From Candidatus Ozemobacteraceae bacterium (GTDB lineage: Bacteria; Muiribacteriota; Ozemobacteria; Ozemobacterales; Ozemobacteraceae), in contig OZ223236.1 of the NCBI GenBank assembly GCA_965140445.1, forward strand, positions 3,650,498 through 3,714,497: a stretch of DNA of 64,000 nucleotides. Reading direction: 5' to 3'. Positions 22,328 to 44,704 of the stretch are shown here, piece after piece (the first letter of the stretch is position 1; the number at the start of each line of letters is the position of its first letter). The position numbers and the translations under genes are program-made. A model generated the notes under the pieces. It was not told where the DNA came from. It saw only the letters and a program-made list of their open reading frames with translations, and did not search any database.

Positions 22328-23191
22328 TTAATCAAAATCCCCATCATCATCTTCATGCGGATAATTCTTTTCCGCACACTCGGGACAAATCCCGTGACTA
22401 AATTTTGCCATAGAATGTTCCGAGATATAGTTTTCAACTCGATCCCAATAGCCTTTGTCATCCCTAATCTTTTTGCAGTGTGAGCAAATAGGAATAATAC
22501 CCTTAAGAGTTTTAATCTCCTCCATAGTATTCCTAAGCTCTTTAATTAAGTTTTCCTTTTCGGCATTAGATTCCTCTAATTCTTTAACAACCTTTTCCAC
22601 GGCTTTTGTTGAATTATTTAAGCCTTCCTGGACCATTCCCCTTGATTTCTCCATTACAAAGGAAAAAAGAAAAATAATCAAATAGGCTGAAACACTTCTA
22701 ACTCTTACATTAAAATCATATTTTGCAACAAAACTAAAATGCTTATCAAAAAAGAAAACTGTAAGCATGACCAGCAATAAACACCAGGCAATTCTGCTCC
22801 CATTTTTTTCTCCCAGAAGGAAAACCGAAATTATTGGAAAAGTGAAGGACCAAACATAACCAGAATTAGAAGATCCCCCAGAAATAAGCAAAAAACAATA
22901 CAATAAAAAGCCTACAGAAACACCCATTATAGAAAATAGCCTATAGTTTTTTGTTTTTCTAAGCAAAATCAAAAATAATAACAAAACGATTGAACAGGAA
23001 AAATCTACAAAAGCCAATTGATAATTTCCCTGATAGCTAGCAATGGGTGCCAGAATCAGAAGAGTAGCCATGGAAAATAAAAGGGTTAAATTCAACATCA
23101 GAGTCCGTCTCAAAGCTTCTATTTCATGCTTCTTTGACAAACCTGAAGAAATAAAATCCCAGAACCATTCTTTTAAAGTTTTCAGAGACAT
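22328..23191 (-). CDS. Membrane sensor (multi-TM N-terminus) - coiled coil - C-terminal Cys4 zinc-ribbon-like module (paralog A)
   Basis: Five or six predicted TM helices. C-terminus LKGIIPICSHCKKIRDDKGYWDRVENYISEHSMAKFSHGICPECAEKNYPHEDDDGDFD. Confidence 0.75.
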   Translation of the reverse strand: MSLKTLKEWFWDFISSGLSKKHEIEALRRTLMLNLTLLFSMATLLILAPIASYQGNYQLAFVDFSCSIVLLLFLILLRKTKNYRLFSIMGVSVGFLLYCFLLISGGSSNSGYVWSFTFPIISVFLLGEKNGSRIAWCLLLVMLTVFFFDKHFSFVAKYDFNVRVRSVSAYLIIFLFSFVMEKSRGMVQEGLNNSTKAVEKVVKELEESNAEKENLIKELRNTMEEIKTLKGIIPICSHCKKIRDDKGYWDRVENYISEHSMAKFSHGICPECAEKNYPHEDDDGDFD

Positions 23192-23224
23192 AGCGTTTTC
23201 TGGTATCTTTTCTCTTGATTAATT

Positions 23225-24079
23225 TTAATCATCATCAAAGTCCTCTTCAGAGTATAGCTCTTTAATGCAGTCTGGACAAATACCATGACTAAATTGTGCC
23301 TCAGTATGGTCGGTAATAAAATTCTCGACTCTATCCCAGAAGCCCTCATCGTTTCTTATTTTTTTACAGCACGAGCACATTGGTAAAATTCCTTGTAAGG
23401 TGCTGACCTCATTCATTAATTCCTTTAACTCATGAATGAGATTTTCCTTAACTGCTTGAGCTTTTTCAAGTTCTGTAACAGACTTTTCCATTTCGACTTT
23501 AGACTTATTCAAGTTCTTTTGAATAGAATCTCTCAATTCTTCCATCACAGCAGCAAAAAGAAAGATTAAAAAATATGCCGACAATGCTCTAATTGCAATG
23601 TTGAAATCATAACTCTCCAAATAAGGAATTTCATTTCCCGCGAAAAAAACAATACCAACAAAACTAAACAAAACAAGACTAAAAAAAGCGCCACGCTGGT
23701 TGCCAAGCAAAAAAATAGAAATCAAAGGGTAAGTAAAAATCCAAACATGTGAAGCTCCACCAACACCACCTGTACCTGATAAATAAGCAAAAAAGACACC
23801 CGTTAGCGCTACTGCAAAGGTCGAACAGAATACATAATTGTGAGTTTTCTTATGATAAAAAAATAGAAAAAGTAAAATACCTAAAGTAATTGAATCAGCA
23901 ACTACAACTCTGTAGCTACCCTGAAAGTATGATAAAAGACCTAAAACAAAAATAAAAAAGCCGCCAAGAAAAACCAGAATATTAAACATAAAGACACGTC
24001 TAAGTTCTTCAATGTTATTTTTATCCTTAAGGCCTCCCGAAAAGAGATACCAAATTATTTTTTTTGATTCATTCTTCAT
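23225..24079 (-). CDS. Membrane sensor - coiled coil - Cys4 module (paralog B, tandem duplicate of A)
   Basis: Same architecture. C-terminus LQGILPMCSCCKKIRNDEGFWDRVENFITDHTEAQFSHGICPDCIKELYSEEDFDDD. Confidence 0.75.
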   Translation of the reverse strand: MKNESKKIIWYLFSGGLKDKNNIEELRRVFMFNILVFLGGFFIFVLGLLSYFQGSYRVVVADSITLGILLFLFFYHKKTHNYVFCSTFAVALTGVFFAYLSGTGGVGGASHVWIFTYPLISIFLLGNQRGAFFSLVLFSFVGIVFFAGNEIPYLESYDFNIAIRALSAYFLIFLFAAVMEELRDSIQKNLNKSKVEMEKSVTELEKAQAVKENLIHELKELMNEVSTLQGILPMCSCCKKIRNDEGFWDRVENFITDHTEAQFSHGICPDCIKELYSEEDFDDD

Positions 24080-24190
24080 AAAAACTCATATCAACAAAAG
24101 TTAAAGTTTGTCGTAATACTATTATAAAGAGAGAAATTGCGCAAAGATAAGGACTCTCATACATTTATCCCTCCAAAATAAACAAAAATC

Positions 24191-24640
24191 TCAACTATTT
24201 TTTTCTAATTCCGCCTTAAGTTTTTGTAAAGGGGTTTCACCAACTGTCTTCCCCAGAATAGTAATAATTTTAATGATTATCCATCCCCAAAATGGGATAT
24301 CACCTAGATAGGCAATACTCTCTGTAACTTTTGTTCCGAAAATCCCTTCTGAAAAGCTGTATTCAACTATCATCTCTATCTTTGCCTTACTTTCTTCATC
24401 AGGCTCTTTTACAAATAGTCTGGCTTTTATAAATTTTGGTCTGTGACAGTCTTCAAGATATCCATCAAAATCCTTTTTCTTGTTTTTAAAACATATGCTA
24501 CCAAGAATTCTATTATTCTCGTATACAATTGTTTCAATTTTATCGTTAATCTTTGGCCAGTTTTCTGGATCAGAAAGATAATCAAAAGCTTTTTCAGGCA
24601 ATTCTTTTAAATATATACTCTCTCTGAGTTTTAATATCAT
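24191..24640 (-). CDS. Hypothetical protein
   Basis: 149-aa ORF with no confident domain. Confidence 0.45.
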   Translation of the reverse strand: MILKLRESIYLKELPEKAFDYLSDPENWPKINDKIETIVYENNRILGSICFKNKKKDFDGYLEDCHRPKFIKARLFVKEPDEESKAKIEMIVEYSFSEGIFGTKVTESIAYLGDIPFWGWIIIKIITILGKTVGETPLQKLKAELEKNS

Positions 24641-24643
24641 TAA

Positions 24644-25195
24644 TCAGACTTTTGCAGGGTGAATTTTCATAATGGTAACATTACAATCATGGTAAACTCT
24701 CTCCTCGATAGTTTCCCATCCTAAAGAAGTGTAAAATTTTTCCTTATCCGGAGTAAAAAGATAAAGAGTTTCTACACCTATGCCCTCAGCATATTTCACC
24801 ACTTTATTTACAAGCTTAGCCCCAGTTCCTTGTCGCCTTTTATCTTTATCAACAAAAACGCTTGCCAGCCATGGAGTAAGATCAGGTCGATCATCCATGT
24901 CACTTACCACAATTGCTGCAGAGCCCAAAATCTCTTCATCTTTAACTGCCACAAAAGTTTTAGGAATTTTTTCTCCAGCAAGGTGATCTTGCATATTTTT
25001 CATGCGCTTTTCCAGCGTCTTTCCTGGATTTAAAAACCCCCATTGATCATGGTGCCATTTCGCAAGCAAAGGTAAGGCTTCTGGGATGTTTCCCATATCA
25101 AGGATTTTTTCCAAAACTATTTCTCCATTTTTAATATAAAAAAAGTATACCAGTGAGATTTGCTCAAGCAAAATTCTTTTCAATTGAAAAGTCAT
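24644..25195 (-). CDS. GNAT family N-acetyltransferase
   Basis: GNAT acetyl-CoA binding pattern (RRQGTGAKLVNKVVKYAE). Confidence 0.65.
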   Translation of the reverse strand: MTFQLKRILLEQISLVYFFYIKNGEIVLEKILDMGNIPEALPLLAKWHHDQWGFLNPGKTLEKRMKNMQDHLAGEKIPKTFVAVKDEEILGSAAIVVSDMDDRPDLTPWLASVFVDKDKRRQGTGAKLVNKVVKYAEGIGVETLYLFTPDKEKFYTSLGWETIEERVYHDCNVTIMKIHPAKV

Positions 25196-25288
25196 AATTC
25201 ATCAAACTTTTTGATCATTAATTTGTTTTTTAATGAATTTTTTTCAAATTATGTTATCATCCTTCAAAACAAATAAAAAGGCTTAGCG

Positions 25289-26215
25289 ATGGCTTTAAGA
25301 AGAGATTTTCAGACAATTCTGGAAGAAATAAACGAAGAAATTTCATCTTTTAAAAATTCAGGAGAAGTTGCGAATTATATTCCTGAGTTGGCAAAAATTC
25401 CAAAAGAAAAGTTTGGATTTTCAGTCTGTACAATAGACGGTCAGTATTATTCAATCGGTGAGTCCGAAGAACCATTTTCTATACAAAGTATTTCCAAAGT
25501 CTTTTCCCTAACGCTCGCCATGATGCTTGAGGGTGACGAACTATGGAAACGCACAGGGCGAGAACCCTCGGGAACCGCTTTTAATTCACTTGTTCAGCTG
25601 GAATATGAGCATGGTATTCCCAGAAATCCTTTCATCAATGCAGGGGCATTAGTAATAACAGATGTTTTAATTTCCCACCTTATCGACCCAAAAATTGAGA
25701 TACTGGATTTTTTAAGACATATAACCACAAACCAAAACATTAGCTTTGACCAAAAAGTTGCAAAATCAGAAGCATCGGTCGGTTTTAGAAATAAAGCTAT
25801 GGGTTATTTTATGAAAAGCTTTGGTAATATTAAAAACAATGTTGAGGAAGTTCTTGATAATTACTTTGCACACTGCTCCATTTCAATGAGCTGCAAAGAT
25901 CTTGCCAAAGCGGGACTCTTCCTCGCAAACAGAGGAATAAACCCGTTAACGGGGGAAATAGTTTTGGATTCAAGAAGAACCAAATATGTAAATTCCTTAA
26001 TGTTAACTTGTGGAACATATGATGCGGTTGGGCAATTTGCCTATCAGGTTGGGCTCCCGGCAAAAAGCGGTGTTGGAGGGGGCATAATGGCAGTCATGCC
26101 AGGAGAATTTTCCATTTGTGTCTGGTCACCTGGTTTGGATAATAATGGCAATTCACTTGCAGGGATAAAAGCCCTGGATCTTTTCACCACCAAAACAGGA
26201 ATTTCCATTTTTTAA
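25289..26215 (+). CDS. glsA: Glutaminase
   Basis: Glutaminase signature SISKVFSL with serine-dependent beta-lactamase-like fold. 308 aa. Confidence 0.85.
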   Translation: MALRRDFQTILEEINEEISSFKNSGEVANYIPELAKIPKEKFGFSVCTIDGQYYSIGESEEPFSIQSISKVFSLTLAMMLEGDELWKRTGREPSGTAFNSLVQLEYEHGIPRNPFINAGALVITDVLISHLIDPKIEILDFLRHITTNQNISFDQKVAKSEASVGFRNKAMGYFMKSFGNIKNNVEEVLDNYFAHCSISMSCKDLAKAGLFLANRGINPLTGEIVLDSRRTKYVNSLMLTCGTYDAVGQFAYQVGLPAKSGVGGGIMAVMPGEFSICVWSPGLDNNGNSLAGIKALDLFTTKTGISIF

Positions 26216-26231
26216 TTTTTTCTCATAAGCA

Positions 26232-27284
26232 TTGCGTGAAATCAAAATCATAAATACAATTAAAGTCTGGAGAAAAGATTTGTTTAAGTATTTAAAAATT
26301 AAGTTTGTATTTATTATCGCACTGTTAGCGTCCTTGTCCCCCCTATATGCGGGCAAAATTTCCACGGACGAAATTAAACGACTTCAGAATGTAAACGAAA
26401 CACTTATCAACCATATTTCAATAATGGAAGAAGAGTTTGAAGCCTCACCTTCGTTAAATAAATACAAAAAAGAATATTTGTCAGCAATCCCGACTGATTC
26501 CATACTACCAGTTGCAAATACGGTTATGGCTAAAACTATTGCTGGCGCGCCGTTTGTGTTTCTTGGAGACGAACATACGACCCCTCAATCTCAAAGAAAT
26601 ACTATTTCTGTTTTGCAAATGATGAAAAAGAACCCTGCCCCTTTAACCCTGGTTATTGAGTGGATTGATATAAGTTACCAAAAAGAGATAAACAACTTTC
26701 TACAGGGAAAAATAAAAATTTCTGATTTAAGAAAATGCATATCTTTTGATAAATACTGGGGATTTTCATGGGCTAATTATTCAAAAATATTGGGTGCAGC
26801 TAAAAAATTGAAAACCCCCATTCTTTTAACTGAAAGATTGAAAAACAGCCATTCCTTATCTGATAGAGACACTTTTATTGTAAAAAAGATTTTAGAACAC
26901 AGAGAAAGTAATCCCAAAATGCGATATCTGGTTGTTTATGGCGATTACCATATTCTAGGAAAACTTCATCTGTCTGAAAAAGCTGCGAAAGCAGGTTTGA
27001 AGCCTCAATTGCTTCTTCTGGGTGGTGCTTCAAAGGTTTATTGGAAGCTTTTAAACAAAATCCAGGATCCCGACAAAACTTCCTTCGCAAAATTGTCCAG
27101 AGGGATTTTTTACATAAGGAATGGAACACCCTTAGAGAGAAATTTATCTTACCGCAACTACCTGCTTAAAATTCTTGGTTACAGTAAAGACGATTTTGAC
27201 ATTTGGGTGGACAAAAGAGACATTTTACCAATTTCTGTTTCAACTAACCGATTTGACTCATTACATTCTACACCAGCCAGATAA
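26232..27284 (+). CDS. Secreted ChaN/Tiki-like family protein (putative)
   Basis: Signal peptide. GDEHTTPQSQ resembles the GxxH motif of the ChaN/Tiki superfamily. Low certainty. Confidence 0.45.
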   Translation: MREIKIINTIKVWRKDLFKYLKIKFVFIIALLASLSPLYAGKISTDEIKRLQNVNETLINHISIMEEEFEASPSLNKYKKEYLSAIPTDSILPVANTVMAKTIAGAPFVFLGDEHTTPQSQRNTISVLQMMKKNPAPLTLVIEWIDISYQKEINNFLQGKIKISDLRKCISFDKYWGFSWANYSKILGAAKKLKTPILLTERLKNSHSLSDRDTFIVKKILEHRESNPKMRYLVVYGDYHILGKLHLSEKAAKAGLKPQLLLLGGASKVYWKLLNKIQDPDKTSFAKLSRGIFYIRNGTPLERNLSYRNYLLKILGYSKDDFDIWVDKRDILPISVSTNRFDSLHSTPAR

Positions 27285-27486
27285 GCTTCCTAAGCTTTTA
27301 TAGAATTATTTTCAATGAACCTTTCCTTAGCTTTTCTAATGATTTTCTTACCCATTAGTTAAGTAACTCTTGCATAAAACCAACTCCTATTCGTATTAGT
27401 TAATGATACATAAAAGTTTATTCATTTAATTTGACGCAAATGACACTCCTCAGGTATCATTTTAAAAAAATTAAGGAGTTTTATTC

Positions 27487-28326: not shown

Positions 28327-28329
28327 AAA

Positions 28330-28366
28330 AAATGGGCGATTCATCTTATTGAATCGCCCATTTTCT
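28330..28366. terminator. Bidirectional terminator between convergent genes
   Basis: tgggcgattca-tctt-attgaatcgccca hairpin flanked by A- and T-runs. Confidence 0.55.
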
Positions 28367-28374
28367 TTAATAAA

Positions 28375-29376
28375 CTAATCGTTGTCTTCCCAGTCCAGTT
28401 CTGGATAAAGCTCCTTTGCGCAATCGGGGCAAATTCCATGACTTATTTCTGCATCAGTATTATCGTAGATGTAAACTTCTAATTTACTCCAGTATCCTTT
28501 ATCGTTTCTAATTTTGTGACACTTACAACATAGAGGAAGCAGGCCGGAAAGAGTTTTAATTTTGGAATTTGCAAGCTGAAGATTTTTAATTAATTCCTCT
28601 CTTTCAATTGCATATCGTCTTTTTTCGGTTACATCAGCGTGCGTACCACACATCCTTGATGGTTTTCCCTGCTCATCATAGGAAACGACCTTTGCCCTGT
28701 CCAATATCCATTTTATAGATGAATCCTTGCAAATCATTCTATATTCAAGCTCATGGATTGGCTTCTTTCCATCCAGGTGGTCTTTAATGGAATTCCATGC
28801 TTTTGCCCTATCCTCTGGATGCACAAAATCTTCCCACTGTTTTACCGTAAACTGTATTTCTTCAAATGTATATCCTAGGATTTTAGCCCACATCTCATTT
28901 CGTTGGACTTCTCCAGTTTTCAAATTCCAGTCCCAAAAGCCAAGTTCACTAGCATCCAATACTAATCTAGTTCTTTCTTCACTATCCAGAACTTTTCTTT
29001 CGGCAATAATTCGAGGGGTAATATCAACAAAACTAACGCTGAACTGACCTTTTTTAGGAGAAAATGCGTTAACATGGAAGTGTTTATTTAGTTCCTGAGA
29101 AAAATTTTCAAACTGAATAGGTTCCCCTGTTAGGGCAACTTTTCCATATTTTTGGATCCAACTGTGCTCTGTACCAGGCATCAAATCAAGAATAGTACGA
29201 CCGATAATATCTTCCGCCTTCATACCAGTCAACTTTTCAAAAGCAGGATTAACTAGTAAGAACCTATAGTCAACGGGATTTCCTTGGTCATCACAAATAA
29301 TTTCATGATGCGCAAAACCAAACACCGCCTCCGCAAACAACAGGGCGGCTAATCCAGTGTCAACTTTAGAATCCAC
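28375..29376 (-). CDS. Cytoplasmic 2xPAS sensor - coiled coil - Cys4 module (paralog C)
   Basis: Two PAS folds. C-terminus LSGLLPLCCKCHKIRNDKGYWSKLEVYIYDNTDAEISHGICPDCAKELYPELDWEDND. Confidence 0.8.
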   Translation of the reverse strand: MDSKVDTGLAALLFAEAVFGFAHHEIICDDQGNPVDYRFLLVNPAFEKLTGMKAEDIIGRTILDLMPGTEHSWIQKYGKVALTGEPIQFENFSQELNKHFHVNAFSPKKGQFSVSFVDITPRIIAERKVLDSEERTRLVLDASELGFWDWNLKTGEVQRNEMWAKILGYTFEEIQFTVKQWEDFVHPEDRAKAWNSIKDHLDGKKPIHELEYRMICKDSSIKWILDRAKVVSYDEQGKPSRMCGTHADVTEKRRYAIEREELIKNLQLANSKIKTLSGLLPLCCKCHKIRNDKGYWSKLEVYIYDNTDAEISHGICPDCAKELYPELDWEDND

Positions 29377-29411
29377 AATAAACCTCGTTAATCTTTTCTT
29401 TCCAAAAGAAT

Positions 29412-29843
29412 TTAGCTTAAAAAGCTAACATATCCTTTATCTGTACCTTTGATATGATTAATTAACCAATCTTTTAGGAAGTTCATAATTTCAATGCTTA
29501 ATCCAATTTTTCCGGAATCAAAAGATTTTTTAAAATCAGAGATTCTTGCTTCAAATTCTTTATGCTTTGCTTTATGAGCAATTACTTCTGAATAAGAGGT
29601 TCTTTCAAACATTGATTCCTCTTTTCTAAAGTGATTTTGTGTGTAGGAAATCAATTCTTTCAGGATTTTTCCTTGAATATCATTTCCTTTACCTTCTTTA
29701 AGCGCATCAAAAAGCTCATTTATCATTGATACCAGCTTTTGATGTTGAGTATCTAGCTCTGCGTTTCCAACACTATAAGAATTATTCCAGTTTAACAAAG
29801 CCATTAAAATCACCTCGATTAAAAATACTGCAACTCTGTACAA
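29412..29843 (-). CDS. Hemerythrin-like metal-binding protein (bacteriohemerythrin)
   Basis: WNNSYSVG...LDTQHQKL...H-x-EE..F...H pattern typical of hemerythrin His/Glu ligands. 143 aa. Confidence 0.75.
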   Translation of the reverse strand: MYRVAVFLIEVILMALLNWNNSYSVGNAELDTQHQKLVSMINELFDALKEGKGNDIQGKILKELISYTQNHFRKEESMFERTSYSEVIAHKAKHKEFEARISDFKKSFDSGKIGLSIEIMNFLKDWLINHIKGTDKGYVSFLS

Positions 29844-29904
29844 TTTTAATTAAACAGGGGTTAAAATGCAATTAGTTAAAAAGCCCGAATAAGCACTTAT
29901 ATTC

Positions 29905-30873: not shown

Positions 30874-30875
30874 TT

Positions 30876-32656: not shown

Positions 32657-33991
32657 TTACTCAAAATCCTTTTTAATCTTTTCAAAGCATTCTGGGCAAA
32701 TTCCATGAGAAAATTTGGCTTCAGAGTGTTTTGAAATATACTCCTCCATTTGGCTCCAGGCACCAGCATCGTTTCTGATTTTTTTACAATAAGAACAGAT
32801 GGGTAATATTCCCTGGAGCTTTTTTATCTGCTCAAAAGCCTCGCCAAGCTGAATAATTAAACCTTCTCTGCACTTTTCATTTTCTTTAATATCTGTTATG
32901 TCTGTGGCAATTTCTAAACGAACGACTCTGCCGTCTATCCATTTTATTGCCTTATCTCTACAAGCATACCATCGCTCGGTTAAAGGATTTAATAATTCCC
33001 ACTCAATAACACCATTTACTTCCCCATCATTACCTATCAATCTATCATTGGTGCAAAATTCACATGGCTTTCCACTCGTAACTCCTTGAAAATACTCATA
33101 GCATTTTCTTTTGCCTGGTTCACCAAAAGTTTTTTTGCAAAACTCATTAACTGCAATTAGCTCATAAGTTTCCATATCAGAAACATAAACAGGCATATCT
33201 ATTGAATCAATAATAATTTGATAAGCTTTTCTATCAGAATTTAAACTATCCTGAAATTGCTCATTTTGACTAATTTTACTCCCAATCCACCCTATCAACA
33301 GCATTATTAAAACAATCCCTAACACCCATACAGAAACCATTGAATCATAAAGATGGCGGACCATTTCTTTCTCATTGTTTAAAAGCTTATCAAGGGACAA
33401 TTTAATACCAACTCCACCAACCAGACTTCCAATTTTAAAGCTTTTATCTGTATGGCATCTTAAGCAATTAGCATCTGCAATAAGAGGTTTCATTGAGCAA
33501 AAGACCGTGTCGTTTCTATCACCAAAGTTAAAAAGGTATTCCTTTTCAGGATTTTCTTTCAGAATTCTAAGAGCTTCCAATTCCCAACCTATAGCTTTAT
33601 TTATTGGGTTTAAAGGGTTTAATCCAACAATTCTCCCTTTTATGCCATACATTTCGGAGTAATGTTCCATTGTCTGTTTTAAAACCTGAGCGGGACTCAT
33701 AAGAGTTAAATTCACTCCATTTTCATTGAAAATATCCCGATCTGGCAAATGAGATAGATGGGGGTTAGGCTCTCCTATTTCACTGATCTTAACGTAAACT
33801 CCTCCATGCCGGTTAACCCATGATCTGAATGCCCAATCCTTATTAGTAATAGTTTTAGCCATGTTTTTAGCCAATTCCAGCGTATGCTCGTGATAATTTT
33901 CTGCGGTAAAGTGAGCAACTAAAATCACTGAAGATATCCAAAAAACCACCACAAAAAAAGCAGCAAGCAAAAATCTATAATTTTTGGGCAT
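32657..33991 (-). CDS. TM - periplasmic DUF3365/Tll0287-like heme-c (CxxCH) sensor - TM - Cys-rich PAS-like domain - coiled coil - Cys4 module (paralog D)
   Basis: CLRCH heme-c motif at the end of the periplasmic domain. C-terminus LQGILPICSYCKKIRNDAGAWSQMEEYISKHSEAKFSHGICPECFEKIKKDFE. Confidence 0.8.
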   Translation of the reverse strand: MPKNYRFLLAAFFVVVFWISSVILVAHFTAENYHEHTLELAKNMAKTITNKDWAFRSWVNRHGGVYVKISEIGEPNPHLSHLPDRDIFNENGVNLTLMSPAQVLKQTMEHYSEMYGIKGRIVGLNPLNPINKAIGWELEALRILKENPEKEYLFNFGDRNDTVFCSMKPLIADANCLRCHTDKSFKIGSLVGGVGIKLSLDKLLNNEKEMVRHLYDSMVSVWVLGIVLIMLLIGWIGSKISQNEQFQDSLNSDRKAYQIIIDSIDMPVYVSDMETYELIAVNEFCKKTFGEPGKRKCYEYFQGVTSGKPCEFCTNDRLIGNDGEVNGVIEWELLNPLTERWYACRDKAIKWIDGRVVRLEIATDITDIKENEKCREGLIIQLGEAFEQIKKLQGILPICSYCKKIRNDAGAWSQMEEYISKHSEAKFSHGICPECFEKIKKDFE

Positions 33992-34070: not shown

Positions 34071-35471
34071 CTAAAATCCCTTCATTTCATCTAAGGAAAG
34101 CTCTTCATGCCGTTCAACCTTTATGTATGCTAACTTGATCAATTCTATTAATTGATCTCTATTTAAAAATTTGTTCAGGCTTACATCAGGTATGTTAGCG
34201 TAAATTGAAAGACGTTTTTCTGCCCTTTCTTCTGCAGATTCAAATTCGTCTAACGCCTTATTGGCTCCATCTACATCATTGTAAACAGTGGATATACACA
34301 TCTCATGATTAAGATTTTTTGCCAATTCCGTTCCTGGGTATGCGGAAACAGGAAAGAAACCAGCCTCATGCATGCCAAGCTTCGCGCACTCCACAGCAAA
34401 ATTAATGGTTTTACGCATTTCTTCAATCGTTTCATCGGGAAATCCAAGCATAAAAAAACATTTAGTCAGAATTCCGTTTTCTGCTAAAGCTTTTACGCTT
34501 CGTTTAACCTTATCAAGATTCAGGTGTTTCCTGATTTTGCTTTGCCTTTCCTGCACTCCTGTCTCTACGCCCAGAGCAACATAGTGACATCCAGTCTCTG
34601 CCAGCCTCTTAACATCATTTAATTCAAGGTGATCAGCTCGACCAATACAGCAATACAAGCGATTTAAATCAGTAATCTGATCAAAGAATTCATTTAACCA
34701 TTTTTTATCAGAGAAAAAAGAATCATCCATAAAACCGAAGTTAGAATTTGAGAATAATTCCTTATAGTGATTTAATTCTTTAATAAGCCTTTCAACACTA
34801 ACTCTGCGCATTTTGCCAGGCCAGAGAACAGGTGTTGCGCAAAAAGTACATTTAAAAGTACATCCCCTTGAGGTACTCAAGAACAGCCATCTTGGCATGC
34901 CAAGCTTTTCCTGGAATGAAAGATATTTTTCAATATCAACCAATGAGAAATCAAGAAAAGGAAGTTCATCAAGGTTTTCCAAGTGATCCCTGGCAGGATT
35001 TTCTATGACCCTGCCTTCTTCTTTGAAAGCCAGGCCTGGAATTAACTTTAGATTTTTAAACTCACTTTTTAAAAGCTCTTCTAAAGTAAGTTCTCCTTCT
35101 CCGATTACTCCAAAGTCCAATGAATCCTGTATAAGTAAATCATTGCTGGAGGTTGTCATCATTGGACCTCCACCTATAGTAAAAATACTGGAGTCCGTTT
35201 CTTTTACTTTTTGCAGAAATTCAATGGCGGTTTTAAAAGTTCCCTGATAAAACGGAACTCCAACTGCTTTTGGGCAATAAGCAAACACCTTTGCTATAGT
35301 TTCATTTAATCCAATATTTTCACTGACAACATCTATGATACTGACTTTTAAGCCTCTGGTGTTCAAATACGAAGCAAGATAAAGCAGATTCAAAGGCGGT
35401 TTTAAATCCATTCTTCCTTTTTCATGCCAATTTAAAGGCGGATTTACTAAAACTAGATCAGCAAAAGACAT
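34071..35471 (-). CDS. B12-binding domain-containing radical SAM protein
   Basis: N-terminal B12-binding-like Rossmann region. Radical SAM CTFKCTFC (Cx3Cx2C). Confidence 0.8.
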   Translation of the reverse strand: MSFADLVLVNPPLNWHEKGRMDLKPPLNLLYLASYLNTRGLKVSIIDVVSENIGLNETIAKVFAYCPKAVGVPFYQGTFKTAIEFLQKVKETDSSIFTIGGGPMMTTSSNDLLIQDSLDFGVIGEGELTLEELLKSEFKNLKLIPGLAFKEEGRVIENPARDHLENLDELPFLDFSLVDIEKYLSFQEKLGMPRWLFLSTSRGCTFKCTFCATPVLWPGKMRRVSVERLIKELNHYKELFSNSNFGFMDDSFFSDKKWLNEFFDQITDLNRLYCCIGRADHLELNDVKRLAETGCHYVALGVETGVQERQSKIRKHLNLDKVKRSVKALAENGILTKCFFMLGFPDETIEEMRKTINFAVECAKLGMHEAGFFPVSAYPGTELAKNLNHEMCISTVYNDVDGANKALDEFESAEERAEKRLSIYANIPDVSLNKFLNRDQLIELIKLAYIKVERHEELSLDEMKGF

Positions 35472-35603
35472 TTAGACTTGATTCTCCAAAAGGAAAGTTC
35501 TTAATAATGATTATTGTAAGGATAGTTGCATAATTGAGCAAGGCACTTACCCTTTTGTGACGACAAAACCTATGTTAAACCAACTCAAGGTCAATTCTAT
35601 TCT

Positions 35604-37298: not shown

Positions 37299-37454
37299 AG
37301 CAAATCTCTAATCATCAAAATTTTAAAGAATGTTTAAAACAAATAAGAGATTTGCGCAACATGGCTTAAAAACACCAATTTATGTTTTTAGGTGATTTTG
37401 AGCATTAAAATGGAAAAAAACGAAAGTTCCGCATAGAAGCAAAAAACTCAATTT

Positions 37455-38870
37455 CTATTCTGGCTTAATTTTATCTTTTCTTAAAAGCTCATCAGCATGT
37501 TCAGGGTAAAATTTTTCTACACATTCAGGACAGATACTATGGGAGAAATTCAAATCAGTATTTTTCCCAAAAAAGCTTTCTATTTTTTCCCAATAACCGG
37601 TATCGGTTCTAACATTTTTGCAATGAGAACAGATTGGAAGCATTTCTTTTAGGGTTTCAACTTTTTCCGCCAACTTTGCATTGGCTTCCTGCAAATCTGC
37701 TTTATAGCTTTCGATTTTATCCATATAGCCATTAAAAGACCTTGCAAGCTCTCCAACCTCATCTTCTGAGCTGACAGATAAACGTAATGAAAAATCGTCT
37801 TTTTCACATTGAGCTATCTTTTGAATTTTTTCTGTTAAAGGCTTGGTAATAGAATAACTAACAGCAGTGGAAACAGGAATCAGAATTATCATTGTTAAAA
37901 CAATTAGTCCCAGGAAAACTAATTCAAACAACACTAATGGATGATACAATTCATCAAGATAGCATGATGAGGCAATTATCCACCCTAATTCAGGTATATC
38001 TTCGAATATAACCAACTTCTCTCTTACAGCCGGTTCACCAGGATTTTGCCATGGGTAGATTATTTTTCCAGATTTTCTTTCAGTCATTTCCCTGATAAAA
38101 TATCTTCCGGAAGAATCTTTAGAACCTGAAATGTTTTGACCTTCTAGAATAGGATGAACCAGGCAGTTTCCTGAATAATCAATCAAATAAGAGTAACCAG
38201 TATTTCTAAATTTTAGACCTAGAATTCCCTCCCGAAAATCCTCAACATCAATAATCTCTTTAAAATCTTCAACATAAAAAGAAGCTGAAATAATCCAATC
38301 CCAAGGCTCAAAATAAAGCATATAGAGGGCTTTTTTCCTTTTTTCAACCTCTCCTGGATTTTTCCACTCGTACATTAAAAACCCATTCTTCTCAAGAGTT
38401 TGTCTTTTAACAAAAGCAAAATTAGAAACATCTTGATCTACAAGCTCTTCATGTGGATGCATGCGTAAAAAGCCTTTACTATCAAGGCAATAAACATATC
38501 CATTTTTACCTATCACCTGAGTCTTGAGAATTTTATCTGCAGCTTTTCTCGCTTCTTCTTCTGTAATTTTTCCTTCTAATACCTGCTTATGCAAATCTGA
38601 AACGACTTGTAAACTAGAATTGGCAATAGATTTCAAATGATTTCTGATTGAAGACAAAATTGAGGTTTTTACTAATCTCTGCATGAGCTTTGTAGAAATT
38701 GAAAGCTCAGTCTCTACATTTTGTTCAATCTGATTTTTTAAAAGAAAATAGGTAACTGAGCTGAAAATTATTAGTATAGCTGAAAATGCAATAAAATTAG
38801 CAATTACAAGCTTTGTACGGATTTTTTGCTTATTAAAAAAACCTGACAATTCATAATCCCCTTCATACAA
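37455..38870 (-). CDS. TM - dCache_1 - TM - HAMP - coiled coil - Cys4 module (paralog E). MCP-like architecture with the MCP domain replaced.
   Basis: Cache region GYVYCLDSKG...HP. HAMP at ITKPLTEKIQKIAQ...VGELARSFNGYM. C-terminus LKEMLPICSHCKNVRTDTGYWEKIESFFGKNTDLNFSHSICPECVEKFYPEH. Confidence 0.8.
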   Translation of the reverse strand: MYEGDYELSGFFNKQKIRTKLVIANFIAFSAILIIFSSVTYFLLKNQIEQNVETELSISTKLMQRLVKTSILSSIRNHLKSIANSSLQVVSDLHKQVLEGKITEEEARKAADKILKTQVIGKNGYVYCLDSKGFLRMHPHEELVDQDVSNFAFVKRQTLEKNGFLMYEWKNPGEVEKRKKALYMLYFEPWDWIISASFYVEDFKEIIDVEDFREGILGLKFRNTGYSYLIDYSGNCLVHPILEGQNISGSKDSSGRYFIREMTERKSGKIIYPWQNPGEPAVREKLVIFEDIPELGWIIASSCYLDELYHPLVLFELVFLGLIVLTMIILIPVSTAVSYSITKPLTEKIQKIAQCEKDDFSLRLSVSSEDEVGELARSFNGYMDKIESYKADLQEANAKLAEKVETLKEMLPICSHCKNVRTDTGYWEKIESFFGKNTDLNFSHSICPECVEKFYPEHADELLRKDKIKPE

Positions 38871-38978
38871 ACATTATCTAATATATAAGATACCATTTCA
38901 ATGAATCAAACCCAATAAAAAAAGAGATCTGATTTTCAAATCAATTTAATGAAAACCAAATCTCTTTTCAATTATTTT

Positions 38979-40592
38979 TTAAATTCCAGAAATAGAATAT
39001 ACAAGGCCGCTACCACCAATAAAAGCAAGCGCTCCAATCGCCTTTTCTGGCATTCGCCCTTCAAGTTCCATGGCTTTACCAAAAAGTCCAAACACTAGCG
39101 GATGAACAAGAAATGGCATAGCAAAAATGAAAGGAATCATACTTGATGCTTGATTACCAAACATACCGCCTTGAACTGCGGCGAAGAGTCCAAAATGAGA
39201 GATAGCTGCAGATTTGGCCATAGAGGCATATCCAAGATCCATTCCACCAATGTGCAATAAAAAGAATCCACCAAAAATTGCCGTAAGTTGCCATCCAAAA
39301 GAGAATTGCATGAGCCCTTTAACTTCTTTGCCTTCATCACCATTTGCGGATCTAAGAGTTTTAATAGACCAAAAAACCAGACACAAACCTATTAATGAAA
39401 TGGTTATAGCTGCCGGAACGAGGAGAGCCCCTTGCTTAACACTCATAGCAAGTATGGTAAAAACAAATACATGGCCGAAAAAGGGAATATTAATCATAAT
39501 TGGAGCTCTGGCGGCAGCTTCAGATCCAAGATCCCCAGCAGTACATGCCCCCGTTAAACCAGCATGAGATAAAGCTCCAGCCATACCAGGAGCAAGGTTT
39601 CTGATTTGATTGCTATTCGCAGCAAAAATTAAAACTGCCAATCCACCAAACATCCAAAAAATCTGGCCGAAAAAGCCATATGCCATCACAGAAGTCATTC
39701 CTTCAAGTTTAAATGCCTCGACAATTCTTGACCCGCCAATCATAAAGTTTGCTGCCAATACCACGGGAATTCCAGCAAACAAAAGAGCTCTGCCTGTTGG
39801 TCCAAGTTGCCAGTTTGAAAAAAACATTCCAATAGTGGAGGAAATAATCATTGCAAAAAAGATCTGTGGCAATGAAATATAAGACTTTGCAAAAACAGCT
39901 ATTTTAAAACTCAGTGTCAAAACGGCTACAATAAAGATGATCTCCAGCAAGCCTTTTCTGATATAGGCAGATTTATTTTTTATTGTTGCCCGATGATCAA
40001 TAAAAATTATTGATCCAACAATTCCAATATAAGCTATTAGAGGATAAAGTTTGGCAAGAGTATCCTCAGGACTAGCCCCAACTATCATCTTTATGATTCC
40101 TTCAATTCCTAGAAGAATGAACATAGATCTAACCAGAAAAACAAGTTGAGTTCTTTTGGTACCAAGAATTACCTCTTCTTGTGATGGAATAACAATATCT
40201 TCTATTTCTTCAAGATGCTGTCCTGCAATAATTTTTCGTAATTCCTGGCCCCCGACAAAAAATGAAGCTATCAAGGCAATGATGGTTACTTTACTAATTA
40301 AGCCAATTAAAGGAAACTCCTTAAGACCGGGGGTACCAACACCACTTGAAACAAGAGCATACCCCATTCCAAGACCGAAAATAACTATAATCAGTATTGG
40401 AGAGTATCTTGTTCCTGCAACAACAGTTCTAGAAATTAAAACCATTGGTAAGATTAAAAAAAGAGTCAACCAAAACTGGTTTAAGAACTGCAACTTTGCA
40501 ATTTGTTCAATCAAATGTTCCATAATAATTTCCTCAACTAATTTTTTACTTTTGCTCTGCAACATTTTAATTAAAACAAAAAGCTTTTGCAA
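38979..40592 (-). CDS. Polytopic membrane protein, putative permease of unknown family
   Basis: About 12-14 hydrophobic helices with Gly-rich segments. No specific family recognised. Confidence 0.5.
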   Translation of the reverse strand: MQKLFVLIKMLQSKSKKLVEEIIMEHLIEQIAKLQFLNQFWLTLFLILPMVLISRTVVAGTRYSPILIIVIFGLGMGYALVSSGVGTPGLKEFPLIGLISKVTIIALIASFFVGGQELRKIIAGQHLEEIEDIVIPSQEEVILGTKRTQLVFLVRSMFILLGIEGIIKMIVGASPEDTLAKLYPLIAYIGIVGSIIFIDHRATIKNKSAYIRKGLLEIIFIVAVLTLSFKIAVFAKSYISLPQIFFAMIISSTIGMFFSNWQLGPTGRALLFAGIPVVLAANFMIGGSRIVEAFKLEGMTSVMAYGFFGQIFWMFGGLAVLIFAANSNQIRNLAPGMAGALSHAGLTGACTAGDLGSEAAARAPIMINIPFFGHVFVFTILAMSVKQGALLVPAAITISLIGLCLVFWSIKTLRSANGDEGKEVKGLMQFSFGWQLTAIFGGFFLLHIGGMDLGYASMAKSAAISHFGLFAAVQGGMFGNQASSMIPFIFAMPFLVHPLVFGLFGKAMELEGRMPEKAIGALAFIGGSGLVYSISGI

Positions 40593-40879
40593 GCTAATTC
40601 CGAATTAAAAGCAAAATTTGGCCATTTCCTCTGATTTTCTAATTATCCCGTACAAAACAACTAAAAATATAATAAGACATAAAACATCTTTACTTCTTCA
40701 GTTAATTTCTAGTCTAGAGGCTATAAAAGACTTATTTTAGATTTTTTAGTAAACTACGTTTTAGTAAATCAATTGTGGTTATGAGCAAGATATTTTTTTG
40801 CAGTTGCAAATTTTTCTGAGATTTTTTAAGGATTGTGATAATATCAATTTCTCAAAACACATACTGGAGGATGTTATTT

Positions 40880-41785
40880 ATGATTAGAAAGGTTGACCTT
40901 GGCGTATCGACTGGTCACGGTGTTTTCGGAAACCCTGCTCCTCTTGGTCTTTTTGGCCTTGCAATAGCATGTGCTTCTTTGACCCCAATAGCGTTTGGCT
41001 ATGGAGTTTCTTCTACAGGCATAAATTCTGCTGCATTTGTAACTGCAGCAATTTTTTCCCTCCTTTTTGGGGGGTTCTGCCAACTTTTAACCGGACTTAT
41101 GGATTTTGCAAACAAAAACACTTACGGTGGAACAATTTTTACGGCTTTTGCTTTTAACTGGATTATTACTGCCATTTCCTTTGCAGGAATAGGTCTTGGC
41201 TACATGATCGATCACACCATCCTCCTCGCCACCGAAATAGTAATGTTCGTAGTTTTCATTTTTCTAACCTATGGATTTGGTTTTTTCAGCAAACTTTTGT
41301 TCTTTTTCCTTCTAGATATCGATTTATTATATGTTTGCAAAATTATTCGTGCCTTCACCCACACTAAAGCACTTGAAATTCCAATAGCCCTGTTCACAGT
41401 TTTACTTGGGATTATAGGCCTTTGGCTTGCTTTAGCAGGTCTTATGAATCCAATTACCGGCAAACAAATGTTTCCTGTCGGAGGCCCAATGTTTACTGGC
41501 CCCAAAAAACAAGGTTTCAATTGGAAAGTTAGAAGAGCTATTTTTGATGTGTTATATGAATCCTGGAAAGAAAGAGGGTTTGCAATGATATCTATGGAAA
41601 CCCTTTCTGAAGAAGTAAAGTCCAGAACCAATGAAGACAAAATTCTTCCTGAAATTTGTTACCTGGGGGAATATGGAGCTTTAAAAACGAAGGAAAATGA
41701 TCTTGAAAAACCAACAGCCGTAAGATTAACTTCCGAAGGTATAGATCTATATGAACAGCTAATTTTCAGGAAGTATGATTTCTAA
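40880..41785 (+). CDS. Acetate/succinate uptake transporter family (GPR1/FUN34/YaaH-SatP) protein with a ~100-aa cytoplasmic C-terminal extension
   Basis: Family signature NPAPLGLFGLA. GGAGG RBS 9 nt upstream of the ATG at 40880. The ORF track start at 40835 lacks an RBS. Confidence 0.7.
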   Translation: MIRKVDLGVSTGHGVFGNPAPLGLFGLAIACASLTPIAFGYGVSSTGINSAAFVTAAIFSLLFGGFCQLLTGLMDFANKNTYGGTIFTAFAFNWIITAISFAGIGLGYMIDHTILLATEIVMFVVFIFLTYGFGFFSKLLFFFLLDIDLLYVCKIIRAFTHTKALEIPIALFTVLLGIIGLWLALAGLMNPITGKQMFPVGGPMFTGPKKQGFNWKVRRAIFDVLYESWKERGFAMISMETLSEEVKSRTNEDKILPEICYLGEYGALKTKENDLEKPTAVRLTSEGIDLYEQLIFRKYDF

Positions 41786-41791
41786 ATTTCT

Positions 41792-41824
41792 AAAAGGGGC
41801 AGCCAATTGGCTGCCTTTTTTTTC
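41792..41824 (+). terminator. Rho-independent terminator
   Basis: ggcagcc-aatt-ggctgcc hairpin followed by TTTTTTTT. Confidence 0.55.
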
Positions 41825-41829
41825 ATCTA

Positions 41830-41858
41830 TTGACAAGCTTAGTATTTTTAAGTATTCT
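41830..41858 (+). promoter_or_regulatory. Possible sigma-70 promoter TTGACA-N17-TATTCT
   Basis: Consensus -35 TTGACA and a weak -10 with a 17-nt spacer, about 225 nt upstream of rsgA. Confidence 0.3.
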
Positions 41859-42084
41859 CAAATAAGTATGAATAGTGGTTGCCTTCCAGCTCCACGACTT
41901 TTTAATCATGGGAGGTAAATTGATGATTGCCAGGAATAATAAAAACTGACTTTTTAACTTTAAAGCCAGATCATCTGCTATTCTAAAATTTTAATTTTTC
42001 CAATTAACTTTTGAATGCATTTTGGCGCGCAGATTTCTGGCATTCTGGAGACTACTCCCATTGCATTTGAAAGGAATTTCATAA

Positions 42085-43155
42085 TTGAATCTAATTAATT
42101 ACGGCTACAATGACTATTTTGAAAAATATCGAAAAGAAAACAGCTGGAACCAGAAAGAAATTGGAAGAATTATCTCCGAAAGTCGAGAATTTTATCTGAT
42201 TTGGACTCATGGAAAGGTTGTAACTGGTGAATTATCCGGGAAACTGAGATTTTGCGCTGAATGTCGCGAAGATCTTCCCGCTGTTGGAGATTGGGTAAAC
42301 CTTGCTCTGCTAGATAATGACCAATCAATTATCAGAGATATTTATCCTCGAAAGACTACCTTAACAAGAGCAGCCATTGGCAGCTCAGGCAACCGACAGA
42401 TAATTGCAGCAAATATAGATAAAGCCTTTATTGTTATGACGGCAAACAGAGACTTTAATCTCAACCGTCTGGACCGTTATTTATCAATAGTGCTCGAAAA
42501 CAAAATTTCTCCAATAATACTTTTAAATAAAGTTGATTTGATTTCATCAGAAGATCTGGAACAACTTAAGTCTGACATAATAAATAGAAATAAAAGTCTC
42601 ACAGTAGTCTGTACCAGTGCTGTCTCGGGTGAAGGTTTGATTACTCTGAAAGAGCAACTTAATGCTAGTGATACGTTTTGTTTCATAGGCTCTTCTGGTG
42701 TTGGCAAATCGTCTTTAATAAATGCTCTTCACGGAGAAGTTCTACTTGAAACCGGTGACCTTGGCCAGAAAAATGACAGAGGGAAGCACACAACAACAAA
42801 AAGAGAGTTAGTAAGACTATCTTCTGGTGGGCTTTTACTAGATACTCCAGGAATGCGAGAAGTCGGAATAGCCGATTCCTCCTCCGGAGTTTCTGAACTT
42901 TTCAGTCAAATTGAAGAATTAACTGAAAATTGTCGTTTTAAAGATTGCTCACACAGGACAGAGCCAGGCTGTGCAGTTATTGCTGCGATTGATCAAGGAA
43001 GAATCAGTGCAGAGCAATTCAAAAGCTATTCGAAACTTCAAAGAGAAGCTAAGAGATTTGAAGCAACAGTTGCGGAAAGAAAAAAGCAAAGTAGAGATTT
43101 CGGAAAAATGGCAAAAAACGTTCTAAAATTCAAAAAGCAACTTAAGAACACCTAA
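42085..43155 (+). CDS. rsgA: Ribosome small-subunit-dependent GTPase A (circularly permuted GTPase)
   Basis: Permuted G motifs (NKVDL...GSSGVGKSSLINAL...DTPGMREVG) and a C-terminal zinc-finger Cys/His cluster. Confidence 0.8.
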   Translation: MNLINYGYNDYFEKYRKENSWNQKEIGRIISESREFYLIWTHGKVVTGELSGKLRFCAECREDLPAVGDWVNLALLDNDQSIIRDIYPRKTTLTRAAIGSSGNRQIIAANIDKAFIVMTANRDFNLNRLDRYLSIVLENKISPIILLNKVDLISSEDLEQLKSDIINRNKSLTVVCTSAVSGEGLITLKEQLNASDTFCFIGSSGVGKSSLINALHGEVLLETGDLGQKNDRGKHTTTKRELVRLSSGGLLLDTPGMREVGIADSSSGVSELFSQIEELTENCRFKDCSHRTEPGCAVIAAIDQGRISAEQFKSYSKLQREAKRFEATVAERKKQSRDFGKMAKNVLKFKKQLKNT

Positions 43156-43208
43156 AAAACAAGGGCCCTTGATAATCAAATGTCGAGGGCTCTTGTACCT
43201 TTCAATCT

Positions 43209-44003
43209 TTAGATTTTTAGATAACCTCGGGATTTCAGATACTCAAAGCTTTTCTCCACATTTACAATATCTCCAACCTCAAGAACAATTAATGGATGTT
43301 CAGATAATTGGCTGGTAAAATTTACCATTTTTTTCCAATCAATGTTTCCTTCCCCCAAGGCCAACTCAAGATCTCTGTCGCCATCATTATCATTCCAATG
43401 CATGTACACAATGTCTTCTTTCATAGTATCAAACCATCGCGAAGCATCCAAAGAAGAGAATACATTCATGTGCCCAAGATCTAAACAGGATTTAACATGT
43501 TCAGAATTTGACTTTTTTATAATATCCTTTAATAAATCAGGACTATCTTCCCACATGTTTTCAAGACAGATACAGATTTCTGGATATTCTTTAGAAACGG
43601 CACTCCAAAAGTCTGCCTGATCCTCAACTGCTTTTTTAAAATAACTCTGATTACGTATCAACATATTTATGCTGCAATGGAAAACAATATGTGAACAACC
43701 TAAATTCAAAGCCATTTCGATTCCTTCTCGAATCCTATCCTGGGAAAGCTTGGCAATTTTCTTATCGGGGCTATGTAAAACTAAATCAATGAATGGTCCA
43801 TGAAAGGTTTTATAACCACTAAAATTTCTTAGTTCCTGCTGAAAAGCACTCATCTGCTCCTTTCGTTGCTCTTTTGAGTCAATCACAGAAGGCATAGCAA
43901 AGGACACAAGTTCAAAGCCACATCCATATTTTCCTGCCAGTTCATAAAATGAGTGTCTCTGACTCCAATATGGTTGTATCAAAATTTTTGAGGGATTAAT
44001 CAT
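43209..44003 (-). CDS. Sugar phosphate isomerase/epimerase (xylose-isomerase-like TIM barrel)
   Basis: 264 aa. AP-endonuclease-2/TIM-barrel pattern (ICLENM..., HxD/E metal ligands). Confidence 0.6.
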   Translation of the reverse strand: MINPSKILIQPYWSQRHSFYELAGKYGCGFELVSFAMPSVIDSKEQRKEQMSAFQQELRNFSGYKTFHGPFIDLVLHSPDKKIAKLSQDRIREGIEMALNLGCSHIVFHCSINMLIRNQSYFKKAVEDQADFWSAVSKEYPEICICLENMWEDSPDLLKDIIKKSNSEHVKSCLDLGHMNVFSSLDASRWFDTMKEDIVYMHWNDNDGDRDLELALGEGNIDWKKMVNFTSQLSEHPLIVLEVGDIVNVEKSFEYLKSRGYLKI

Positions 44004-44071
44004 TTAACAATACCTTTCATTTTAAACTTTTTGATAAGAAGTAAAAAATAACGAATTCTGCTTTTCTGGGA

Positions 44072-44704
44072 CTATCCTTCTATTTCTAAATCACCGAACT
44101 CATTTTTCAAGCAATCAGAGCAGATTCCATGCGAAAAAACAGTTTCAGAATTCATTGTAATGTATTCTTCTAATGTAAACCAAGTGCCATCTACATTTTG
44201 AATTTTCCGACAATATGAACAAATAGACAACAATTCAGATAAATATTTAATTTTTTTCTTAGCTTCTTTCAGGTTTTTATTTGTTCTAATTAATTCTTTA
44301 GTCGTTTTTGCCAATTCATTATTTAAAACTGAAATCTGTCGGATAATACTATCAGTACGTTCCGTTTCAGGTATTCCAATCAGCAACCAATCTTTTTCCA
44401 TTTTAAAAATTTCACAATATAAAGGTATGGATAATGGATTTACAAAGTCTAAACTGATTTTCTTTTCTTCAGGAAACTGACTTATAAGTTCCTTTAGTTT
44501 ATTAACAGTTGCTGAAGTCAAAATAGTTGAGATACTATCACCTGGCTTAATATTACTTCCAGAAGTCTTTTTAAGATTTAAACTACTGGAATTAAGAATA
44601 TAATCTTCACTAAAAGAAAAAAAAGCAATTTTACTTGTGGAACTAACGTATTCAAGCACATAAGAAAAAATGGCTCCCTCATTTAATGTCACAATAAAAA
44701 CCAC
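44072..44704 (-). CDS. Small cytoplasmic protein: unknown N-terminal domain - coiled coil - Cys4 module (paralog F)
   Basis: C-terminus LSELLSICSYCRKIQNVDGTWFTLEEYITMNSETVFSHGICSDCLKNEFGDLEIEG. Overlaps the upstream B12-binding protein gene by 16 nt. Confidence 0.75.
   Translation of the reverse strand: MVFIVTLNEGAIFSYVLEYVSSTSKIAFFSFSEDYILNSSSLNLKKTSGSNIKPGDSISTILTSATVNKLKELISQFPEEKKISLDFVNPLSIPLYCEIFKMEKDWLLIGIPETERTDSIIRQISVLNNELAKTTKELIRTNKNLKEAKKKIKYLSELLSICSYCRKIQNVDGTWFTLEEYITMNSETVFSHGICSDCLKNEFGDLEIEG

Follow-up and report, generated by a model that had tools for sequence, protein, structure and literature searches.

The outputs of bacterial signalling proteins are usually catalogued as a short list comprising kinase, DNA-binding, cyclic di-GMP, chemotaxis and phosphatase domains. 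In the classical transmitters, namely the HisKA-HATPase, GGDEF, methyl-accepting chemotaxis protein (MCP) and class III cyclase types, the output occupies the C-terminus, following HAMP, PAS, GAF or receiver (REC) domains and a heptad helix. The same place is held by a module of about 50 amino acids (aa), built around four cysteines, in six proteins encoded within a 64,000-nt stretch of a Candidatus Ozemobacteraceae genome (assembly GCA_965140445.1, contig OZ223236.1, positions 3,650,498 to 3,714,497), hereafter called the window. The module shares with the classical transmitters its range of sensor partners, the presence of multiple paralogues per genome and REC-bearing members paired with histidine kinases, yet it has no similarity to them in sequence or fold. 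In archaea, the domain HalOD2 (Galperin et al. 2018, PMC5847659) likewise follows a receiver at the C-terminus of response regulators and is a predicted zinc finger with two conserved CXXC motifs. By its description HalOD2 is set apart from the module, being limited to a few halobacteria, having a 20-25-residue spacer and following a HalX-like helical part. The sole known relative that we detected is the dimerisation domain of PerR-type regulators, to which the similarity, judged from profile comparison, is remote but statistically robust. The module is apparently an undescribed output domain that matches no known class, although an unintegrated signature or a brief mention of it may exist.

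Copies of the module in the window were located by ORF (open reading frame) listing, a six-frame regular-expression scan and a hidden Markov model (HMM) scan of all six frames. A first-pass annotation of this DNA had proposed that one module ends six ORFs, and both scans confirm this, each giving exactly six copies of the Cys4 module, all on the minus strand and all forming the C-terminal end of an ORF, with HMM E-values from 9e-28 to 1e-38. One further regular-expression match in the window proved spurious, having stop codons inside, and the six-frame HMM scan found no degenerate seventh copy there. The six genes are as follows.

22328-23191, minus strand: ORF1, 287 aa; MASE6 (E 4e-16), linker and module (HMM E 1e-38); Cys core at 22376-22486; tail DDDGDFD.
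23225-24079, minus strand: ORF2, 284 aa; MASE6 (E 1e-9), linker and module; Cys core at 23267-23377; tandem paralogue of ORF1.
28375-29376, minus strand: ORF3, 333 aa; two PAS domains (PAS_3, E 2e-28), linker and module; Cys core at 28420-28530.
32657-33991, minus strand: ORF4, 444 aa; periplasmic Tll0287-like domain (DUF3365; E 1.5e-14), transmembrane segment, linker and module; Cys core at 32687-32797.
37455-38870, minus strand: ORF5, 471 aa; dCache_2 (E 8e-50), transmembrane segment, HAMP (E 2e-6), linker and module; Cys core at 37521-37631.
44072-44704, minus strand: ORF6, 210 aa; N-terminal domain of about 125 aa, linker and module (E 9e-28); Cys core at 44111-44221.

Each module is preceded by a heptad helix of roughly 30-40 aa, and the rest of each of these proteins is the sensor part. 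The module consensus reads L-x-G-[IL]-[IL]-P-I-C-x2-C-K-K-I-R-D-D-x-G-Y-W-x3-E-x-Y-I-x2-H-S-x-A-x-F-S-H-G-I-C-P-E-C-x2-K-x-Y-P. The spacing C-x2-C-x29-C-x2-C is the same in all six window copies, as had been claimed for it, and the six also keep L, the four Cys, G, the Trp likewise claimed to be invariant, E, S-H and the I preceding the third Cys. Two other motifs put forward as invariant are only near-invariant: FSHGIC is ISHGIC in ORF3 and FSHSIC in ORF5, and the Tyr-Ile pair is in fact [YF]-[IF]. The short acidic tail said to follow the module is present in ORF1 to ORF3 and absent from the other three copies. The proposed coiled-coil linker is borne out by hydrophobic residues, which follow a heptad repeat: counted from the first Cys, they occupy positions -3, -7, -10, -14, -17 and -21.

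Pairwise identity among the six modules is 33-69%, the module of ORF5 being more divergent than most (33-52% to the rest) and that of ORF6 similarly so. The N-terminal parts were described at first as all different, and they are indeed unrelated, except that ORF1 and ORF2 share MASE6 and are 36% identical over 182 aa in this part, their modules being 62% identical. For ORF4 a heme-c DUF3365-like domain and a Cys-rich PAS domain had been suggested. The former is present, with a CLRCH haem-c motif in the Tll0287-like domain, while the Cys-rich PAS-like region is weak (PAS_8, E 0.23). The N-terminal domain of ORF6 has no match in Pfam. Searches of Pfam and NCBIfam uphold the initial observation that no transmitter, kinase, cyclase, MCP, phosphatase, DNA-binding or enzymatic domain occurs in any of the six proteins. 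A cluster of module genes as dense as that in the window is uncommon, more than one copy being found in only 3 of 80 other 12-kb loci against six in 22 kb here. The G+C content of the source contig is 36.8%.

Conservation of the Cys, His and Trp in orthologues had been fixed beforehand as the test of the module, and all of them are kept in 80 full-length relatives from many phyla, as is the C-x2-C-x29-C-x2-C spacing, seen in 80 of 80. Eleven positions are invariant in that set (G, P, C, C, R, D, G, W, H, C, C), and the identity of relatives to the window copies across phyla is 60-75%. An AlphaFold2 model from a 46-sequence alignment reached a pLDDT (predicted local distance difference test score) of 70, and one from 126 sequences with the linker included reached 84. 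In the latter model the linker helix (pLDDT about 92) leads into the first knuckle; next come a beta-hairpin that bears R-D-D-x-G-x-W, a helix and the F-S-H-G loop, and the second knuckle is placed where a helix begins.

The architecture census covered the 80 full-length relatives, a second search and the ten longest relatives. The module is C-terminal in 82 of 82 copies, its first Cys lying 45-76 aa before the stop codon; longer tails beyond it are rare and consist of low-complexity sequence. Among the N-terminal partners of the 80 relatives PAS is found in 21, REC in 16, HAMP in 7, Reg_prop/Y_Y_Y propellers in 6, VUPS in 4, SBP_bac_3, GAF and dCache_1 in 3 each and MASE6 in 2, with MASE3, CHASE and 7TM domains in fewer. 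CHASE3, phosphonate-binding, NMT1 and other domains were added by the second search, in which no precomputed Pfam domain covers the module. In all, at least 20 different sensor or receiver families precede it. Sensor domains are all that the ten longest relatives have, at lengths of up to 1704 aa, and with Pfam and NCBIfam no HisKA, HATPase, GGDEF, EAL, HD-GYP, MCP, PP2C or helix-turn-helix (HTH) domain was found in the six ORFs or in the 80 plus ten relatives. In transmembrane proteins with Reg_prop/Y_Y_Y propellers (P0127 for instance) the cytoplasmic part is a helix of about 30 residues plus the module and nothing else, and any intracellular action of such proteins must therefore be that of the module. 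In the REC-module proteins, about 207-215 aa long, the phospho-acceptor motifs (acidic pocket, Thr/Ser and Lys) are intact.

Some relatives carry two modules. P0141 consists of REC, linker and module followed directly by a second, degenerate module, and P0121, P0122, P0127 and P0130 resemble head-to-tail fusions of two complete sensor-module units, the first module being partly degenerate in P0121 (FSYGMC) and P0127 (LSHDTC).

Neighbouring genes were compared by all-against-all clustering of ORFs of at least 90 aa from 80 loci of 12 kb each plus the window. Histidine kinases, found at 21 of the 81 loci, are the only non-generic recurrent family, and the kinase gene is often directly upstream of, or overlapping, a REC-module gene. 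The remaining recurrent neighbours are generic: an ATP-binding cassette (ABC) ATPase, a sigma-54 activator, a substrate-binding protein, a nucleoside triphosphate transferase and an AMP-binding enzyme. A search for a conserved small partner among ORFs of 40-200 aa within 1.5 kb yielded only spurious antisense ORFs. A PEMT/ICMT methyltransferase was considered as partner since it adjoins two short members, and was rejected because it is absent from every other locus. The terminal position, the range of partners and the pairing of REC members with kinases together form the signature of a classical transmitter or output, in both one- and two-component settings. A domain that stands C-terminal to many unrelated sensors and to REC, to the exclusion of other outputs, belongs by that pattern to the output-domain class. 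The proposal of a modular output domain is therefore strongly supported by the terminal position, the at least 20 input families, the lack of any co-occurring known output and the kinase pairing.

The family is large. Among 1.84 billion representatives, the module profile matches 24,876 clusters (50% identity) at E<=1e-3 and 20,445 at E<=1e-10, and a genomic scan taking one genome per species gave at least 598 confirmed loci out of at least 600. Among the matches listed are Desulfobacterota, Acidobacteriota, Verrucomicrobiota, Bacteroidota/Ignavibacteria, Nitrospirota, Nitrospinota, Spirochaetota, Lentisphaerota, Calditrichota, Chloroflexota, Poribacteria and others, over a dozen phyla in total. 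Source annotations name only the input domain, as in ‘PAS domain-containing protein’ or ‘response regulator’.

Members of 60-95 aa would seem to stand alone, yet for two of three that were checked the gene is split, a REC or PAS ORF lying immediately before it. At L081:4610-5270 and L082:3904-5273, module proteins of 89-90 aa directly follow a REC or PAS ORF, and the genes look like ones split by a frameshift or an assembly error. Many short database members are for this reason probably fragments. P0104, which has no sensor gene upstream, may be genuinely stand-alone. Plasmids gave a single match, in Dongshaea marina plasmid NZ_CP028898.1 (L094, 33163-39288), where IS21 and IS91 transposases separate the module from a GAF-domain gene, marking this copy as a disrupted remnant. 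Divergent stand-alone mini-modules of 62-136 aa with a shorter spacer occur on IMG/VR contigs (L088-L093) and share the core VCxxC[KR][KR]..GxW..[IV]SHGICPEC. One, on a 152-kb contig (L089:2995-3183, plus strand), lies between homing endonuclease and T4-like baseplate genes; another, on a 307-kb contig (L090:2968-3204, plus strand), adjoins an NAD-dependent DNA ligase. No counterpart of the module was found in cultured phage genomes.

Neither Pfam-A (2025) nor NCBIfam (June 2026) holds a model for the module, whether queried with full proteins or with the bare module at E<=10; only sub-threshold zinc-knuckle noise was obtained (DUF3039, zf-C4pol, Zn_ribbon_3 and zf-C4_ClpX). In PDB, neither a single-sequence nor a profile search produced a match below E 0.05. 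The top ones, a membrane protein and the beta-hairpin of glutamate dehydrogenase (IRxDDGxW..E.Y...HS), were judged to be due to chance or convergence. The module hairpin IRDDxGxW..IE.Y...HS resembles the N-terminal beta-hairpin of the mitochondrial glutamate dehydrogenase (1hwy, 3jcz; E 0.07-0.3), a likeness that is probably convergent. Neither the motif strings of the module nor any relevant account of it was found in the searchable literature, beyond whose reach much subscription literature lies. As far as Pfam-A (2025), NCBIfam (June 2026), PDB (sequences and folds) and the searchable literature go, the initial impression of an uncharacterised family is upheld.

Several small cysteine-based domains were compared with the module by hhalign; none of rubredoxin, Bfd, the MqsA zinc domain and DksA gave a match, and all four were discarded as relatives. 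Against two rubredoxins and E. coli Bfd the probability was 1-3.5%. Rubredoxin has the same C-x2-C...C-P-x-C pattern and 29-residue spacer as the module, but the conserved motifs differ and there is no profile similarity (probability below 4%). The ZAS anti-sigma factors were likewise set aside, their motif being H-x3-C-x2-C against H-x2-C-x2-C in the module, with no anti-sigma match in Pfam.

The comparison with PerR gave a different result. With hhalign, the module profile matched B. subtilis PerR with a probability of 76% (E 2e-5), a second module profile matched the PerR C-terminal domain with 87% (E 4e-6), and this second profile matched a 120-sequence PerR alignment with 95.4% (E 1.9e-8) over 46 columns that include both CxxC knuckles. 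The PerR sequence used is 99% identical to a database entry. Controls scored below the real alignments: shuffling residues with the Cys fixed gave at most 23.6 against 32.3 (n=240), shuffling columns with the Cys fixed gave at most 24.4 against 44.8 (n=120), and about 660 unrelated proteins gave at most 24.3. The module knuckles align with C96/C99 and C136/C139 of PerR. Both domains contain two CxxC pairs, I-C-x2-C-[GK]-K-I-x-D, an acidic helix with E, a His, F-x-x-S-H and G-[IV]-C-P-E-C-x-K-K, and the order of secondary-structure elements in the module model is compatible with that of PerR.

The two also differ. Relative to PerR the module has a 6-residue deletion that removes one strand, and its spacer is 29 residues rather than 36. 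The winged-helix DNA-binding domain of Fur and PerR is missing from the module proteins, in which no HTH was found, and the module is instead fused through a coiled coil to sensor or receiver domains. Counterparts of its invariant R, D, G and W are missing in PerR. Of the regulatory metal-site ligands of PerR (H37, D85, H91, H93 and D104), the module has, in the hhalign alignment, G, L or P at the H91 and H93 positions, and only the equivalent of D104 carries D or N. Lacking the winged helix, the regulatory-site ligands and any match to Pfam FUR, the module is not operationally a member of the Fur family. Structure searches with the weaker model placed PerR/Fur and the anti-sigma factor Fin on top, below significance, and the better model gave no match; since a Fur-like fold is not established by these searches, we rely on the profile comparison. 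On that basis the PerR-type Zn(Cys)4 dimerisation domain is probably a distant relation of the module, or else the module is a close structural analogue of it, and a structural zinc site in a dimeric module is favoured over a classical zinc ribbon.

Our preferred interpretation, to which we would give about an even chance and which we infer throughout, is that the module is locked by zinc and paired at the tip of the signalling helix, where it would offer a signal-dependent surface to a conserved partner. The four Cys would hold one structural metal ion, most likely zinc, and in a parallel dimer the signalling coiled coil would hold two modules next to each other at its end. When a ligand binds or the receiver is phosphorylated, the register or rotation of the helices would shift and alter the arrangement of the two modules, whereby a composite surface made of the invariant hairpin R-D-D-x-G-x-W and the nearby Y, H and S-H would be formed or lost. 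A conserved partner acting in trans, whose gene would lie elsewhere in the genome, may read this surface, and the many sensors of a cell would converge on one target, as GGDEF or MCP proteins do. We favour a common conserved target over paralogue-specific DNA sites because no conserved neighbour was found and because the surfaces are near-identical among paralogues and across phyla. Several points weigh on the other side. The metal, the oligomeric state and the partner are arrived at by deduction, and the missing conserved neighbour is negative evidence only, drawn from 80 loci of 12 kb each. The Pfam FUR HMM (PF01475) does not match the module even at E<=10, and E. coli Fur aligns by hhalign only locally, over 13 columns. 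Finally, nucleic-acid or ligand binding or catalysis could equally be the role of R, D, G and W, which the module keeps invariant and PerR lacks.

A nucleic-acid-binding zinc finger, with paired modules clamping DNA or RNA through K-K-x-R and K-K so that the proteins act as transcription or RNA regulators, seems to us unlikely. Several conserved basic residues do lie beside both knuckles, nucleic-acid binding is found in many C4 zinc fingers, the family to which the closest relative belongs consists of DNA-binding regulators, and the REC-module proteins (about 210 aa) resemble small response regulators. However, the Fur/PerR domain that matches is the one for dimerisation and not the one for DNA binding, the winged helix being absent from the module proteins, and the module can sit only about 30 residues from the membrane. 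No Pfam DNA-binding model matches, and a surface so nearly constant among paralogues and phyla would imply a single shared DNA site, unlike known DNA-binding outputs.

The likeness to PerR could also be read more literally, though we hold this to be quite improbable. Dozens of sensors in a cell, together with response regulators supplied by histidine kinases, would then end in a detached module of the Fur/PerR type, which would signal by regulated hetero-association, with a Fur-family regulator, whose monomer it would sequester or release, with other modules, or with another universal hub such as RNA polymerase. If so, the module would define an unrecognised signalling route of broad phylogenetic reach, sensing would be wired straight to a global regulator with neither a second messenger nor phosphotransfer to a DNA-binding domain in between, and large phages with stand-alone mini-modules would be using mimics to interfere.

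The cysteines invite the further thought that the module is a redox or metal-sensing centre, in which Cys4, possibly with Asp, Glu and His, would bind iron or an iron-sulfur cluster or form a zinc thiol switch and serve as an extra input or relay. The spacing C-x2-C-x29-C-P-x-C is that of rubredoxin, the title of PDB entry 2fe3 calls the PerR Zn(Cys)4 site a structural redox switch, many of the hosts are anaerobes, one JGI record labels a member ‘bacterioferritin-associated ferredoxin’, and the conserved E, H and S-H could make a second metal site. We nevertheless find little to recommend this reading: the rubredoxin and Bfd comparisons described above failed, neither Pfam Rubredoxin (PF00301) nor Fer2_BFD (PF04324) matches, the family also occurs in lineages taken as aerobic or microaerophilic (Chthoniobacteraceae and Vicinamibacterales), and the proteins would still be without an output.

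A catalytic or small-molecule mini-domain, whose dimer interface would house an active site or a pocket for a second messenger, is equally doubtful. Such a role would account for a polar conservation (R, D, D, E, Y, H, S-H) that far exceeds the needs of a zinc scaffold, and for many paralogues per genome with no conserved protein partner; a coiled coil leading to a dimeric output is moreover the established architecture of GGDEF and class III cyclase enzymes. Yet about 45 residues are very few for an enzyme, there is no similarity to a known catalytic fold, and several of the conserved residues are common to the non-catalytic PerR domain.

The last alternative, also to be given very small odds, is that the module is a passive dimerisation cap and the proteins act through their sensors as decoys, ligand or phosphate sinks or heteromeric kinase modulators; it agrees with the similarity being to a dimerisation domain and with the general knowledge that REC-only phosphate sinks and kinase-less PAS/HAMP modulators exist, but it would leave large transmembrane sensors, with only a helix and the module in the cytoplasm, no inward signal, and the conservation of the module surface (60-75% identity across phyla, and 62% against 36% for the sensors of ORF1 and ORF2) exceeds that of the sensor domains and so argues for a specific interaction.

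Two genes beside module genes in the window may bear on what the adjoining proteins sense.

29412-29843, minus strand: hemerythrin-domain gene (Hemerythrin, E 5e-15), on the strand of ORF3 and 36 bp upstream of it.
44689-45804, minus strand: B12-binding protein, 371 aa (B12-binding, E 3e-16; B12-binding_2, E 8e-13), with about 165 unassigned N-terminal aa.

Judging by the spacing, the hemerythrin gene and ORF3 are likely co-transcribed; they possibly form an O2- or iron-sensing operon in which the hemerythrin protein is the sensing partner of ORF3. By coordinates, the stop of the B12-binding gene overlaps the start of ORF6 by 16 nt, an overlap from which we infer that its product is a probable operon partner or co-sensor of ORF6; such a co-sensor could be cobalamin- or light-dependent. 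Both neighbours suggest auxiliary sensing partners.

The window also contains two genes of the histidine-kinase type, one at 20744-22270 on the plus strand (HATPase_c and REC), convergent with ORF1, and a second at 53088-56561 on the plus strand; both cluster with kinases that adjoin module genes elsewhere. Cobalamin- and pyridoxal phosphate (PLP)-linked genes are abundant around (14699-16900, 34071-35471 and 45934-47331, all on the minus strand). Among them are one with a cluster mate named D-ornithine 4,5-aminomutase beta subunit and a B12-binding radical SAM protein, and a 465-aa ORF in this neighbourhood resembles a PLP enzyme by eye.

In more than 20,000 clusters from over a dozen phyla the module replaces the catalogued outputs behind the same sensors and receivers, and it may mark an unstudied signalling route. 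Because the proteins that carry it are annotated by their input domains only, signalling censuses miscount them or list them as output-less. Once its target has been identified, the module would offer synthetic biology a very small and portable output. The remote link to Fur/PerR provides a concrete and testable starting point, and the identity of the target would explain a large share of the sensors in sulfate reducers, Acidobacteria, Verrucomicrobia, spirochaetes and related groups.

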